Shown here piece after piece: positions 6,001-15,000 of a stretch of 52,451 bases of DNA. The DNA lies in contig DIMA01000022.1 of the NCBI GenBank assembly GCA_002425325.1, positions 1-52,451 on the forward strand, given 5' to 3'. Position 1 is the first letter of the stretch; every line of letters begins with the position of its first letter. This DNA comes from Bacillales bacterium UBA5578. Its GTDB lineage: Bacteria; Bacillota_I; Bacilli_A; RF39; UBA660. The position numbers are program-made.

Positions 6001-9000
6001 AGAGTATGATAGAAATTGTTATTTTGAATTAAGAGATAAAATTAAAAATATATGCACAGATATGAACACTAATATTAATAATCTATCTCAAACAAAACAA
6101 AATATAGATAAATATTTAAAAATTGATGATGTAAATAATCCTCATCAATCTTTATCTAATAAAATTGAGGAATTAAAGGAAATATATAATAATTTAATTA
6201 ATAATGTTATTCCTGCTATTAATAGTAAAATAGATTCTATTAATAATAATATAAAAGATATACAGGGTAAAGAATCTTATGAGTAAGATAGATGTTAATA
6301 TAGATAATATAAAGTCTATTTCTATTCCTCAATTAGAAGATAATATAAGTAGTTTAAATAATATAAAAAATAATCTAGATAGTATAGAATTAATAAATGG
6401 TTTTAGTCATACAACATATATAAAAGAGTCAGTTAATAGTATTGATAAAATAATTACTGATATAGATAGTATAAAAAAAGAAATAGAAGATATTACAAAA
6501 AAAATTAGCAATGCTGATACTAATTTATACTATAACGCTATAGGTATAGAAAATAAAAAGTAAAAGATAATTCTTTTACTTTTTTTATACATTATAAACT
6601 AATTTAGTCTTTTTCATATCTTTAGAGAAAGTTATTTTTATTGTCCATTTAGTTTTAGATATAGTTAATGTTTTCATATTAGTACAGCCATGTACCATTT
6701 GAATATATCCGGTTACTTTAGATGTATCAAAACTACTTAAATCTAATGATGATAAATATCTATTATTATAGAACATATTACTCATATCAGTTACATTAGA
6801 AGTATTAAATGATGATACATTTAAACTAGTTAATCTAACATTATTACCAAACATATAACTCATATTAGTTACCTTACTAGTATCAAAATTACTTAAATCT
6901 AATGTATTTAATAATGTCATATTATAGAACATATAACTCATATCAGTAACACTAGATGTATCTAATTTACTTAAATCTATATTTTGTAATGATGTACAAT
7001 TTCTAAACATTGACATCATACTAGTAACTTTACTAGTTTTTAAAGTACTTATATCAACTGATACTAGTTTAGGACAATTATAAAATAATCCTCTTAAACT
7101 AACTGTTTCATCCGTATATAAATGTCTTAAATCCACTTTAGCTAAATTAGGAAAATCTCTAAATAAGAAATCTGAATTTTTATTAGCAATAATACCGTTA
7201 TTAGCAGCTATTATTAAATCATAATAGCTACTATTTTCAGTATTTTTAATTAAATAAGCTCTAACACTATTATCTTTTTTAGCACTAATATCAAATACAT
7301 AATCATATTTATCTATTTCTAGAATATCAGATGTAGTTATACTTACTACTTTAGATATATTATCAGCACCTATTTTCTTTTGCCAACTATATCCTAACAT
7401 TATATCTTTAGGCTTATTATCATCTTTCTTTTTAGTTCCACATCCAGTTAATAATATTAAAATTAATAAGAAACTTAATATCTTAAAACATTTTTTCATC
7501 TAATCACCTAATTTTCAACAACATTATAATTTTCAATAAATTGAACTAATGTTGTTTCACCTCTTTTAATAACATAACAGAAGTTATTTGGTATATCTTC
7601 ACATAATTCTTTAGTAATTTCATTTATTCTAATACTAAATTGATTAACAATTCCATTACCAACCCAAATTCCATCTGAGCTATCAACTAAATTATACCAT
7701 AAATTAGTTTCATATTTTTCAATATTATCTATTGTATCAACTATTATTAAATTAATAACATTTATTTCTTTTATTTTCTTGAATAATAATTGTAATCTAC
7801 TTTGATTATCTGTAGATAATTGTTTTATAAAATTATCTATACCACATATAAATATATTAGTACATCTAGTAGTACTCTTTATACTAGCACTTAAATATTT
7901 TTCATAGTATTCATTTATAAATTTTTCTAAATTAATAAAATTACTATTAAAACTATTATTTACTAATTTTATATTAGTAGAACTCTTTATAAAGTTTTCA
8001 CCACTAGCATCTATTACAATAATATCACTTTTATCAATTGCACTAAATTGTTTAATTAATGGACTAACAAAGTTACACATACTCTTTATATTATTACCAG
8101 ATACTATATTTATAGCTTTAGTAAAATCATATTTTACTATTGATAAATCATTTGTATTATATCCAATTATTATTTCATTTATAGATGCTATATCCTTTTT
8201 AACATCTTTAAATGTAATTCTATCAGGTAATGTTGGAATTTGTGCTGCTTTAACAGTATACTTAGTAGAATAATCAGTACATATCTTTCTTATATGATCA
8301 TATTCTTCTTTATAATTATTATCTATTACAGCAGTTTGGAATTCAAATACATCACTATCAATTTTAACTAGTCCTCTACCATTTATTTCTTTAGCTTTAT
8401 CAAAATCATCAATATTATAAATACTTATACTATCTTCTTTACTTATATCTAAAGAATATACTATATCTATATTTTGCTTAATACTTAAATCTAAATTTTT
8501 AGGACTACTAGAAGTAAATACAAAACTAATTCCATATTTATGTCCTATCTTAATTAATTCAATTAATTTATCTTTATAATTACTATATGAATTTATAAAT
8601 AATTCAATATTATTAATCATTACACATATAACAGGAACTTTAAGTTCATTTGTATTATTATAAGTTTCAATATCTCCATATATAGAGAATACTTTCTTTC
8701 TTTCTTCTATTTTATTATATAAATAATTAAATAATCTCTTAATTTTATCATCTTCACCATTATATATAATATTACCTACTAATAGTGAATCATTAAATGC
8801 ACCTAATAATTCTTTATCTAAATCTAATATATAATAGTTTAAATCAATAGGTGTATATTCTTTAATAGATGATGCTAAAATAGCATTTAAGATTAATTCT
8901 TTATGATTTATAGAATATATTAATGCATTATTTTTTAATATATCTAATCTTAATATATTTTGTTTTTTATTATATGGATCATCATATTCACCTATTATAG

Positions 9001-12000: not shown

Positions 12001-15000
12001 CTATCATATATGTTCCCCTATTCTTCTATCTTATATAATTATAACAAAAAATATATTTTTATAAAATACTTTTGTATATAATTTATTGATTGTTTTTAAT
12101 AGAGTTAATATAAATTTTATAATATATTACTTAATTCATATTCATTATATATTTTATCGAAATCAAATTCTATTATTTCACCTTTTATTTTTGTTTTAAT
12201 ATTATTATTATATTGAATATAACCAAAACCTTCTTTATTTACATACCAAAATTCATTATCTAACATACTTAACCTCTCTCTAATAAATTTCCTTACTACA
12301 AATTTATTATTACATAAAAAAAAGATTAGAAACTTTCTAATCTTTTTAAATATTTTTTTATTTTTTTATCAAAAAACTATCATATCACTTTCTTTATTTT
12401 ATCTGCTATTTTTTTTATTTCTCTATCAATAGTCTGTACACTTAAATTTTCTAATCTAGCCATTTTAACTCTTTCAATTTCATCCAATCTATATTGAATT
12501 ATTCTTTTTTGTAATGGCGTAAAATGAATTTTTTGTTGTAATTCAAATAATTCTTCTTCAACAAATGTAATTTTTAACATTTTTATCTATTATCTTCTTC
12601 TAGTTCGTGTACTTCTTCTCTAATTAAACCAACTGAAGTATTTAGACTATCTAATAATAATATTAAATATGCTGTTTCTAAAACAAAAATCGTTAACATA
12701 ACACCTATAACAATAAAAAGTCTTTTATTTGTTTTTTTATAATCTTTTAATATTTCTGTTGCTATAGGTAAATTATCTATATTTTTATTTAAATCTTTTT
12801 TCATTAATTCCACCTTCTAAATTTATATTATTATTTATAATAAAAATAAATCGGGTGGTTCTTCAACTTGAAGATAATCTAATATTTTAAGTATTTCTAT
12901 TTCCAAATAACATCACCTATTTAATGTTTTAAATAAAAAGAATAAGTATTTTTACTTATTAACTTATTCATTAATATGATTTTCTTTTTCCCACTTTTCT
13001 TGTCTTTTACTCTTAGGTAATATTAAACTATATTTTTGAGTTTCATCATATAGTTCTTTTATTTCTTTTATATATTTACTAACCGTATCTTTACTAATAT
13101 GAAATTCTTCTGCTTGCTTAGTAATATTCCATCCAGCTACTCTAGTTGTTAGAATAGCTTCCATTAGTCTAGCTTTTTCGTCCCCTAATTCAATTCGATC
13201 ATTTAACCCACTTTCTTCAAAGAATGTCTCTAGTATTAATTTTGTCCATCTAACTCCCTTACTCATAAAAATCACCTCTATCATTATAACATAACTACAT
13301 AAAAAAAATTGTATAAATATTGTATATTTTTTGTATATTTTTTGAATTATTTAAACAAATAAAAAAAAGTATTATAGAAATACTTTTTAATTATAACTAT
13401 TGATTATTTTCAGGTGCGACTGGTGCTACTGGTGCAACCGGAGCCACTGGTGCAACTGGAGCAACTGGTGCTACCGGTGCAACTGGTGCAACTGGTGCTA
13501 CCGGAGCCATTGGTTCTACTGGGGCAACTGGTGCTACCGGAGACACTGGTTCAACTGGTGCTACCGGAGCCACTGGTTCAACTGGAGCAACTGGCGCTAC
13601 AGGAGCCACTGGTTCAACTGGGGCAACTGGTGCTACCGGAGCCATTGGTTCTACTGGAGCAACTGGTGCTACCGGAGCCATTGGTTCTACTGGAACAACT
13701 GGCGCTACAGGAGCCACTGGTTCAACTGGAGCAACTGGCGCTACTTCTACTGGAACTACATCAACTGGAGTAACTGGTACTTCATTTGTAATAGGTTCTT
13801 GAGCTACAACATTTTGCTCTACAGTTGGAACAGACTCTGTTTTAGATATAATTTCTTTTAATTTATTTTTAAATGTAATTTCTTCATCATCAACTAATCC
13901 TTTATGGAATACTTGAATAATTTGATCATGATCAAATAAACAAACTTCATTTGATGATACATATCCTTCTGGATAAATACATCCACAATAATCATACATT
14001 TTATTTTTATCTTCATGAGTTACAGAACAAAAACCTGTAATCATAGCTCTTTTTGTACCATTTTTTAACATTACAACTGTTCCAATTGGTAAATACTTTT
14101 CCCCTATTTCATTATTCATTTAAGTCCTCCTAACGTTGAGCGACATCTTTTACAAGATAGTCAGCATATTCATTTATTGATTCTACAAATTTTGGTAATC
14201 TTGTAGTTAAATCTTCAAAAGTTTGTTTTGAAGTATTAGCAATATCTCCTGTCCAAATATCTCCATTATCTCCTATATGAGAATATTGTTCTTTTTGTAA
14301 TTCATTTAATATATCAGATATTTGACTTGATATTAACTTTAATTGACCAGCCATTGATGTTATATCAGAATAATTATATTTTTTACTCATAATACCACCT
14401 AACTAATCTTTCTATTATAAGTATCTATAGCTTCTTTATAAGCTTTAGATACTTTAATTAAGAAATCTCCTGTTTCTTCTACAGATTCATTCAATTTTTT
14501 AATTATTTCTGTTTGTATTTTTAATTCTTTTAATTTCTTATTATCTTTTTCAGTAGATATAACATCACTAAATTTCTCTTCTAATTTATTTAAATCATCT
14601 AGTAATATTCTTAAATTTTTGGATTTATCTTTAATATTTTTACCAAGTTTTGGTCCATTTTCATAGTCTATATAAAGATTGTTCATAAATCACTCTCCAA
14701 TCATAAAAGTATTAATTTAGTTCCATTACGAATATCCGATTCAATTACAAACATATCATCTTTATATTCTTGATTAGTCATTTTATTATATAAAGCAATT
14801 TCAGTATCTATCATATAAGCACCATCACTTAACTCTACAATAGAATTGACTAATATCTTTTTTACTAAACCAATTTTTCTGTTGACTGGTATAAACAAAT
14901 TATATTCTTGTTCTATTAAAGGAACATAGACCGTTACAAGAACTTTATTCATTTTACCACCTCAATATTCTTTTATTAACCAATATAACCCATCATATAT

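Follow-up and report, generated by a model that had tools for sequence, protein, structure and literature searches.

The window, i.e., the complete stretch of 52,451 nucleotides from Bacillales bacterium UBA5578 that we analyzed, contains a type VII secretion system (T7SS) locus on its minus strand. The locus starts with esaB (14701 to 14952), which encodes an 83-aa EsaB/TseB-like ubiquitin-fold protein without a C-terminal Gly-Gly. Downstream lies a pair of genes whose order is preserved in syntenic congeners. The first (14399 to 14686) encodes a 95-aa helical protein that has no WxG motif and was assigned by alignment and by an order family profile that includes the protein itself (E 1.8e-18); the second (14130 to 14390) encodes an 86-aa WXG100-like protein with a W-T-G motif, which matches PF06013 below the cut-off (E 9.4e-6) and the WXG profile of T7SSe-like systems at E 3.4e-7. 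The 86-aa protein is likely of the EsxA type, and the 95-aa protein is likely its partner. They are followed by a gene (13397 to 14119) for a 240-aa DUF4176 protein with a Pro/Val/Ala repeat tail (PF13780, E 1.6e-25) and by essC (7508 to 12007), an open, full-length gene for a 1499-aa protein with FHA (E 5.5e-15) and FtsK (E 2.9e-22) domains. The genome-wide survey's note had listed DUF4176 among the contents of both loci; its gene is present at 17 of 44 order loci, and it is an accessory of the substrate module rather than a core T7SS part.

Several other genes lie within or next to this locus. Three short minus-strand ORFs of 66, 76, and 106 aa, the last HTH-like, separate the DUF4176 gene from essC (12380 to 13284); they were not seen in syntenic congeneric loci, the 106-aa ORF has a 58% identical paralogue on contig C24, and they are probably an insertion outside the machine. 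A PARCEL/DUF285 lipoprotein is encoded 8 bp behind essC (6585 to 7499, minus strand), and as this adjacency is not conserved, we left it out of the component list. Immediately upstream of esaB, a minus-strand gene (14976 to 16583) encodes a degenerate phosphoglycerate mutase (iPGM) paralogue with a C-terminal membrane helix. We rejected this protein as an EssB-like pseudoenzyme, because it is found in 20 of 20 genomes of the genus, including the EssC-negative G129; it is a genus core gene, present in 6 of 121 order genomes, and not a T7SS part. On the plus strand, two genes encode small helical proteins of 101 to 103 aa (5975 to 6286; family profile E 1.9e-31), with relatives in T7SS loci, and of 94 aa (6279 to 6563; E 4.4e-24). 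The former has a family member encoded at C13:3006-3323 by profile match, and the latter shares its family with C13:3670-3981. The former gene starts at the ATG at 5975 or 5981, downstream of a perfect TTGACA-17-TATAAT site (5930 to 5958), which was the sole standout in a promoter scan that gave 112 sites versus 112 expected. As a lead only, the atlas neighbours of the 5975 to 6286 protein are WXG100/EsxC/YwqH-like at 0.84 to 0.89.

The second locus of this genome is split over two contigs. It comprises a second essC (C12:14536-19143; 933.9 bits on TIGR03928), an 84-aa esaB-like ORF (C12:19143-19397), and six small helical ORFs together with a DUF4176 gene (C13:1852-5114), among which C13:2208-2513 matches WXG100 at E 5.2e-4. 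All genes that the survey's note had named at the two loci were recovered at their positions, and the C12-C13 junction, which it had inferred, agrees with the gene order of eight congeneric loci. Between esaB and the helical genes lies a gene for a 570-aa membrane-anchored HExxH protein (C13:69-1784). Its predicted fold (pLDDT 87.9) had a best VIA Z-score of 7.4 to zinc aminopeptidases, which is a common level, and no Foldseek match at E 0.001. This protein occurs in 4 of 121 genomes only, each time beside esaB or at a matching contig end, and we therefore consider it a sublineage extra and not a core part. Thus, the claim that the loci contain no other membrane part does not hold literally, given the HExxH protein and the PARCEL lipoprotein, but neither of these is conserved across the order. 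The earlier note had overlooked the HExxH protein, the helical genes at 5975 to 6563, and the pseudo-ATPase features of the window EssC described below.

EssC scored above the cut-off in 66 of 121 order genomes, extending the previous count of 20 of 41. The EsaB-like 83-aa protein was found in 65 of these 66 genomes versus 0 of the 55 others, and the sole miss is a genome (G034) in which essC sits at a contig end. The model of the window EsaB (AF2 pLDDT 94.5) had the ubiquitin-like domain of EccD5 as its top Foldseek match (E 3e-6), with VIA Z-scores of 12.1 to this domain and 10.5 to YukD; by sequence, the EsaB alignment had no match in the PDB (best E 0.19). While the fold search by itself cannot pick YukD from other ubiquitin folds, the match to the EsaB profile of T7SSe-like systems (E 5.7e-20) and the co-occurrence with EssC do so, and the 83-aa protein, whose identity had been weak before, is an EsaB/TseB orthologue by fold, profile, and co-occurrence. 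Across 34 loci retrieved from the sampled order genomes, essC and esaB were the only genes present in all, and the next most frequent, the WXG-like family, was present in 22. All 64 intact order EssCs share the same catalytic residues in the D1 ATPase domain. By comparison, the D2 GxxGxGK motif is retained in 44 of these 64 proteins versus 18 of 19 T7SSe-like EssCs, and the phosphothreonine motif of the FHA domain (R, S, and N) in 0 of 68 versus 18 of 19.

The reported absence of EssB, EsaA, and a kinase was borne out by wider searches. For EssB, EssA, and EsaA, PF10140 was above the cut-off in 0 of 121 genomes and TIGR03929 in 0 of 5; profiles built from five T7SSb loci and searched against the proteomes of this genome and G042 and against the loci gave no EssB or EssA match at E 0.05 and only weak EsaA matches, the best of which (E 4.7e-5) is a small locus ORF. 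Kinase, PPM phosphatase, and DUF6382-FHA genes (TseD, TseF, and TseJ) were detected at 26, 24, and 17 of 29 T7SSe-like loci, respectively, and at least one of the three at 28, counts that involve some circularity because these loci also supplied the profiles. None of the three was found at 44 order loci, and DUF6382 was above the cut-off in 0 of 121 genomes. The single-pass TseH/K and TseI, a large Ig-like surface protein, gave no match in two proteomes or the loci, with shallow profiles (9 and 7 rows) that recover only 5 and 4 of the 29 T7SSe-like loci themselves. FHA domains are confined to EssC in five genomes and are above the cut-off in both EssC copies studied here. The only kinase above the cut-off in each of four well-assembled relatives is one PrkC-sized protein; in the UBA5578 genome, it is a PASTA kinase inside an rlmN-prpC-prkC-rsgA operon, and two further PPM genes lie away from the T7SS genes. 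A 236-aa kinase-like membrane protein of G042 was discarded as a candidate, having no relative in the UBA5578 genome and no Pfam match. These absence calls refer to homologues in metagenome-assembled genomes, 91 to 98% complete for those read closely, and a new, unlinked partner would escape them.

To place the order EssCs, we built the tree against named subtypes that the survey's note had lacked. Using LG+C20 PMSF on 45 rows, 25 order EssCs formed one clade (SH-aLRT 100) within a T7SSe-like clade (100), and a grouping of the order with T7SSb was rejected (p-AU 4.6e-6); this placement is relative to a reference set without T7SSd, f, g, h, i, and j, and the T7SSe-like clade was named by its parts list and the membership of Neobacillus rather than by published accessions. 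In an LG+F+G4 tree of 83 rows, the T7SSe-like clade instead fell inside the order diversity. We prefer the site-mixture tree, which omits the long Erysipelotrichaceae branches. Because of the EssC nesting, the rejection of T7SSb, the loss of accessory genes, and the eroded FHA motif, the order system is, as judged from sequence, a reduced T7SSe and not a stripped T7SSb. With T7SSe as the reference, the informative losses are therefore those of TseD, TseF, and TseJ, and probably of TseH, TseI, and TseK, rather than those of EssB and EsaA.

The small helical proteins are less constant than EssC and EsaB. Matches to a WXG100-like order profile were found in 48 of 66 EssC-positive versus 1 of 55 EssC-negative genomes; 18 of the 66 had no match to this single profile, and 9 of 44 order loci had no small helical family at all. 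PF06013 was above the cut-off in three of five genomes, and the WXG profile of T7SSe-like systems also matches. Larger proteins encoded nearby had an enzymatic Pfam match in only 4 of 30 scanned; several have WXG100 domains, NlpC/P60, Mbeg1-like lipase, or transglutaminase-like domains, or HExxH motifs. Within the genus, spoIVA-like genes flank the locus.

The two EssC copies, treated as equivalent before, differ in their motifs. The window EssC is composed of two FHA-like domains, the first assigned by alignment only, a membrane hairpin (about residues 268 to 318), a stalk/D0 domain, and D1 to D3. In D1, the Walker A Lys and both arginines are retained, Walker B Glu817 is replaced by Lys, and the DYKGGGL and LATQKP motifs as well as the D2 Walker A loop are lost. 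The hairpin is now strongly hydrophobic, and the protein scored 614.8 bits, below the cut-off of 778.4. An altered genetic code for the two essC genes was not indicated, as arginine codons align with Arg. Based on these lost catalytic motifs, the window EssC is a predicted pseudo-ATPase, and of the two copies, only the C12 EssC looks catalytically intact. Because its EssC is a predicted pseudo-ATPase, the window locus alone would not be a working version of the minimal machine that it had been proposed to represent.

We favor, with a probability of about 0.65, that the order system is a reduced T7SSe descendant in which EssC and EsaB likely export small WXG100-like proteins on their own, with the window EssC likely an accessory and the C12 EssC active. 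Export by an unusually bare machine is suggested because EssC and EsaB are paired without kinase, phosphatase, or membrane helper genes; complex formation and export themselves we infer. Mechanistically, six EssC chains would form the pore from their own membrane hairpins, EsaB would clamp the FHA and D0 domains by analogy with YukD in B. subtilis, the helical pairs would dock on D2/D3, and the energy for export would come from ATP hydrolysed at the invariant D1 site. Once the kinase was gone, the FHA phosphothreonine pocket would have disappeared, and the constraint on the D2 Walker A loop would have eased. It is a more tentative proposition, and on balance a doubtful one, that an EssC ring with a ubiquitin-fold clamp is the complete translocon in half of the order, without a second membrane subunit, and that in some lineages a spare EssC with a plain hydrophobic anchor has become a selected pseudo-ATPase, acting as a receptor or scaffold that replaces the lost helpers.

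The machine might not be minimal if it also uses at least one membrane or wall-spanning partner whose gene is located in another part of the genome and is too divergent to be recognised or newly recruited, e.g., one of the many orphan single-pass proteins. T7SS parts can be unlinked, since G042 and G035 encode WXG pairs far away from essC; G042 encodes well over 100 unclassified membrane proteins; TseH, TseI, and TseK are poorly conserved; and two sublineages have membrane HExxH proteins of restricted occurrence encoded next to essC. YhgE/Pip, encoded in 5 of 121 genomes of which 4 are EssC-positive, was tried as such a partner, but it is absent from 62 of 66 EssC genomes and does not track EssC. 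Moreover, clustering of neighbours showed essC-esaB in many unrelated genomic contexts without a third constant gene, their patchy presence within genera fits a two-gene cassette, and the lost FHA pocket and relaxed D2 loop fit partner loss; we therefore consider a hidden partner unlikely. Even less probable is that EssC-EsaB no longer crosses the wall and delivers to the membrane or a periplasm-like space, or that it now serves a different process, e.g., sporulation or DNA handling. Neither locus of this genome has a wall-spanning part or a large toxin-like substrate, enzymatic neighbours are as scarce as noted above, and the flanking spoIVA-like genes would fit a different process. However, WXG100-like genes track EssC, and neighbours with substrate-like domains and genes for DUF4176 chaperones persist, as in substrate export; with 55 of 121 genomes lacking it, the system is no core component of sporulation.

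The window EssC alone could be a functionless duplicate decaying beside the C12 copy. It has a long branch in the tree, retains 152 of 209 near-invariant columns compared with 190 to 208 in two intact rows, and is separated from the upstream genes by the short insertion; degenerate copies were seen in just 3 of the 20 genomes of the genus, with differing lesions. Nevertheless, the frame of 1499 codons has stayed open despite about 50% divergence from the nearest intact orthologue, and a relative that is 93% identical over residues 630 to 1120 retains all 1499 aa and the identical lesions, while 0 of 200 frames stayed open in a neutral drift simulation to 7% change. Among the 40 listed of 361 variants, 21 are in the window essC, 15 synonymous and 6 non-synonymous (pN/pS 0.09). 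All four degenerate EssCs share the hydrophobic shift of the hairpin (KD 2.09 to 2.18 versus 0.64 to 1.39 in 64 intact proteins). The window essC is under purifying selection, and simple decay is the least probable of these alternatives. Instead, the window EssC is likely an accessory that does not hydrolyse ATP, with the C12 copy likely doing the work, and would most likely serve as a membrane-anchored receptor for substrates or as a structural subunit next to intact EssC. In G124 and G135, each degenerate copy is encoded close to an intact essC. The altered hairpin and missing D2 loop of the window EssC argue that it may stay out of rings formed by intact EssC.

The order system bears on which parts a type VII pore requires besides its ATPase. 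Additional membrane proteins are essential in all systems tested; for S. aureus and B. subtilis, this is stated in PMC11217815 and weighs against a bare machine. Recent structural work builds a channel model from the ATPase alone, with YukB at the central channel; in the same study, YukD binds YukB between the FHA and DUF domains, and YukC is not needed for this (PMC12637312). A natural two-gene core in dozens of genera, derived from a kinase-regulated T7SSe, makes this question testable with four short genes in a laboratory host, and the loss of phospho-control is recorded in its FHA domain. An abundant uncultured gut order thereby gains a probable route for protein export, and pseudo-ATPase EssCs that arose naturally and are under selection become available. 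Our literature search, which had most subscription papers and the supplement of PMC11217815 outside its reach, found no published account of either the minimal core or a selected pseudo-ATPase EssC.

Compared with known systems, the order system is most similar to T7SSe, with which it shares an FHA-bearing EssC of about 1530 aa that nests with those of Neobacillus, Paenibacillus, Mesobacillus, and Erysipelotrichaceae, a small ubiquitin-fold orthologue (profile E-values in the 1e-20 range), paired WXG100 proteins, and DUF4176 and helical substrate modules. It differs from T7SSe in lacking TseD, TseF, and TseJ, in its eroded FHA motif and often lost D2 Walker A, and in the pseudo-ATPase EssCs of some genomes. 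With T7SSb (S. aureus Ess and B. subtilis Yuk/Yue), it has in common an FHA-bearing EssC, a stand-alone EsaB/YukD, and WXG100 and DUF4176 genes; unlike T7SSb, it has no EssB, EssA, or EsaA, and its EssC falls outside the T7SSb clade. The suggestion that it is simpler than T7SSa to j is supported in that its parts list is shorter than that of every subtype in Garrett 2024 (PMC11217815), although the proper yardstick is T7SSe rather than T7SSb. T7SSg comes close, with the shortest published list (two WXG100 proteins, TsgB, TsgC, and TsgL) and no second membrane protein named (PMC11217815); however, its ATPase TsgC lacks the FHA domains of the order EssC, and no constant fifth gene lies near the order essC. 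T7SSg is further marked by a TsgL of the DUF5050 propeller type and by neighbouring Tad genes. Finally, according to PMC9436818, Walker changes in D1 or D2 of S. aureus EssC abolish secretion, D1 mutants being dominant-negative and D2 mutants failing to assemble. Unlike these engineered mutants, the dead EssC of the window is natural, full-length, and selected, and has changes in D1, D2, and the hairpin.

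The EssC loci of the order RF39 constitute, as judged from their genes, a real, widespread and reduced T7SS that is T7SSe-like by descent and a putative export system. All T7SS genes claimed for the window in the genome-wide survey's note were found. On the minus strand, they run from a dead iPGM paralogue through the 83-aa EsaB-like ORF (14701-14952), helical ORFs of 95 and 86 aa, a DUF4176 gene (13397-14119) and three short ORFs to essC (7508-12007) and a PARCEL lipoprotein gene. At 5975-6563, two convergent ORFs represent families shared with helical genes of a cluster on contig C13 (E = 1.9e-31 and 4.4e-24). 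The genome (1.2 Mb, 24% GC) is 91% complete, and most of the locus-bearing runs, which come from 11 studies, are metagenomes of animal gut or faeces. The degenerate iPGM paralogue (14976-16583) has a C-terminal membrane helix and is present in 20/20 genus genomes and 6/121 order genomes; an ordinary iPGM gene lies at 18296-19819. The window also holds genes for an HTH regulator (697-1209), a Mob/Pre-like relaxase (1818-3113) and a Fic-like protein (3209-4261) as well as a truncated spoIVA-like ORF (5501-5905), which alone among these four was family-checked; positions 1-4261 likely represent a small mobile element adjoining this ORF.

In the second locus of this genome, C12 stops 26 bases past the esaB-like gene, while C13 starts with a gene for a 570-aa membrane-anchored HExxH protein, with six helical genes and DUF4176 next. 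The link between the two contigs, previously only inferred, is well supported because in eight congeneric loci a single contig carries, in this order, essC, esaB, the HExxH gene, helical genes and DUF4176. The note's statement that both loci lack EssB and other membrane parts holds for EssB, which was over cut-off in 0/121 genomes (seven weak matches, three of them in EssC-negative genomes), and is not strictly true for membrane parts, given the HExxH gene on C13. Neither EssB nor EssA was detected with profiles from five T7SSb loci in the proteome of the window's genome, in the order loci or in G042, a 98% complete genome of 0.83 Mb that was almost completely fetched. The HExxH protein (C13:69-1784, L002) and its congeners (L048, L103-L108, L110, L291 and L292) are membrane-anchored, have 550-630 aa with an invariant HExxH and a zincin-like fold, and adjoin esaB in one EssC sublineage only (4/121 genomes). 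A second membrane HExxH family lies next to essC, in divergent orientation, in L040, L043 and L059. The membrane HExxH proteins are possible counterparts of the T7SSa mycosin protease. Both DUF4176 proteins (the second at C13:3999-5114) have long repeat tails, the one Pro/Val/Ala-rich and the other with an acidic repeat of 18 aa; the tails differ in length between strains and among congeners (240-526 aa).

We read 63 order loci with essC, 44 of which extend at least 5 kb to either side. Among these 44, esaB is present in all, a small helical family in 35 and DUF4176 in 17; in the 34 loci from the order sample, only a WXG-like family (22) exceeds half besides essC and esaB. In L033, L036, L038, L042, L044, L052, L060 and L071, two helical ORFs of only 62-82 aa (half the WXG100 length) come after essC-esaB, and such loci are near rplM-rpsI in several genera. 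A WXG100 pair lies away from essC-esaB in G042 and G035. L079 (G027 C1:10776-13973), a tandem array of at least four kinase-like genes of 250-280 aa, is unrelated to the T7SS loci. An order-type essC, in the context seen in a Bacilli MAG (L196), also lies on a 6-kb contig with the label Muribaculaceae (L197), which probably reflects a binning error.

The EsaB identity of the small protein, which had been considered weak, is upheld by fold, profile and co-occurrence. From a 40-member alignment, the 83-aa protein is predicted to form a beta-grasp at pLDDT 94.5. EccD5 ubiquitin-like domains took Foldseek ranks 1 and 2, and structural comparison gave Z 12.1 for the EccD5 domain (rmsd 2.0, 80 residues) and 10.5 for YukD (2.2, 79), scores similar to those of many other ubiquitin folds. 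A profile built from 66 small proteins encoded in T7SSe-like loci, one of which proteins has a weak YukD match, matched 61/61 order members and the window protein (E = 5.7e-20). The protein occurs in 65/66 EssC-positive and 0/55 EssC-negative genomes; kin among these are not independent, but presence differs within several genera.

The closest EssC beyond the order in the phylum sample is that of G332 (Erysipelotrichaceae), whose essC neighbours are an esaB-like gene, two WXG100 genes, DUF4176, a PPM phosphatase and two kinases; its relatives are proteins of about 1530 aa from Neobacillus, Paenibacillus, Mesobacillus, Cohnella and clostridia. Of 78 e-like metagenome loci fetched, 29 were long enough, G332 included, and they encode a kinase (26), PPM (24), a DUF6382-FHA protein (17), a short single-pass protein (5) and a 1900-2100-aa Ig-like protein (4), which matches the T7SSe parts as listed in PMC11217815. 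In the site-mixture tree (608 D1-D2 columns, 45 rows), the 25 order EssCs are monophyletic (100) and nested in the e-like clade (100), and their grouping with T7SSb is rejected (p-AU 4.6e-6). Under a simpler model with 83 rows, the nesting was inverted and the order and e-like sequences still stayed together. The e-type accessories are found in 0/44 order loci, DUF6382 over cut-off in 0/121 genomes and FHA outside EssC in none of five genomes. The FHA phosphothreonine residues (Arg, Ser and Asn together) are present in 18/19 e-like versus 0/68 order EssCs, and the D2 Walker A loop in 18/19 versus 44/64. On these residue and gene counts, kinase loss coincides with loss of the FHA site that would read the kinase. 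Separate long-branch EssCs of about 1050-1300 aa occur in Erysipelotrichaceae-level genomes (L194 of G351 and L137-L154, family f9 of the same class); the one locus read widely combines two WXG100 genes and a gene for a 684-aa exported protein with essC and a divergent esaB and has no kinase, and these loci represent a second reduced T7SS form.

Among the copies listed for 121 genomes, the window EssC (614.8 bits) is the sole full-length one below cut-off. The 64 intact order EssCs share six invariant D1 residues. Compared with them, the window EssC still has the Walker A Lys, the Walker B Asp and both arginines, but Lys replaces the catalytic Glu817, and DYKGGGL, the TQKP motif and the D2 loop are gone. 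Its identity to the nearest intact orthologue is 52% in D1 and not lower in the other domains; between intact paralogues, by contrast, D1 is the best-conserved domain by a wide margin (69-95%). The membrane hairpin is plainly hydrophobic (KD 2.09 versus 0.64-1.39 in intact copies), which suggests that it no longer lines a pore. This EssC is maintained despite its lesions. In a relative with 93% identity across the region searched, length and lesions are the same; 15 of 21 variants listed (40 of 361 variant rows; four runs, four studies) are synonymous (pN/pS 0.09, binomial p 2e-7); and simulated neutral mutation closed the frame in 200/200 trials. Degenerate copies of this sublineage also occur in G124 and G135, in both cases a few kb behind an intact essC; these copies retain the Glu but no longer have the two arginines and the Gln. 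An intact orthologue of the window gene is present in five other congeners, and where the contig extends far enough (G125, G126 and G127), its upstream context is that of the window. The three degenerate lineages cluster in trees, in which long branches may pull them together. Tandem essC genes of different sublineages share a locus in L092/L093 (G127 C1), L096 (G134 C22), L097/L098 (G135) and L099/L100 (G124), and the genus has up to four copies per 1.7-Mb genome.

YukD of B. subtilis attaches to YukB at a site between its FHA and DUF domains, even without YukC, and YukB is the central channel in the model described (PMC12637312). Walker mutations in D1 and D2 are reported to block secretion in S. 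aureus, where D2 is also reported to be required for assembly with EsaA, EssA and EssB (PMC9436818). From these reports, we infer that the order EssC would form a pore with EsaB as a clamp and hydrolyze ATP at D1, with D2 no longer required for holding partners. A chaperone role in substrate modules has been described for DUF4176 proteins (PMC13492133). The likely substrates are the helical pairs and, in other genera, also larger neighbors with WXG100, NlpC/P60, Mbeg1-like lipase or transglutaminase-like domains or HExxH motifs; most of 30 larger neighbors scanned had no Pfam match, and neither locus of the window's genome has a large substrate. The window esaB and helical genes would depend on the C12 EssC. 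The dead window EssC would most likely be a non-hydrolyzing receptor or scaffold and may possibly lend an arginine finger; co-assembly is uncertain because its hairpin and D2 are altered. None of the other T7SS subtypes tested fits the order system; it departs from T7SSe membership in its accessory parts and is like T7SSe by descent.
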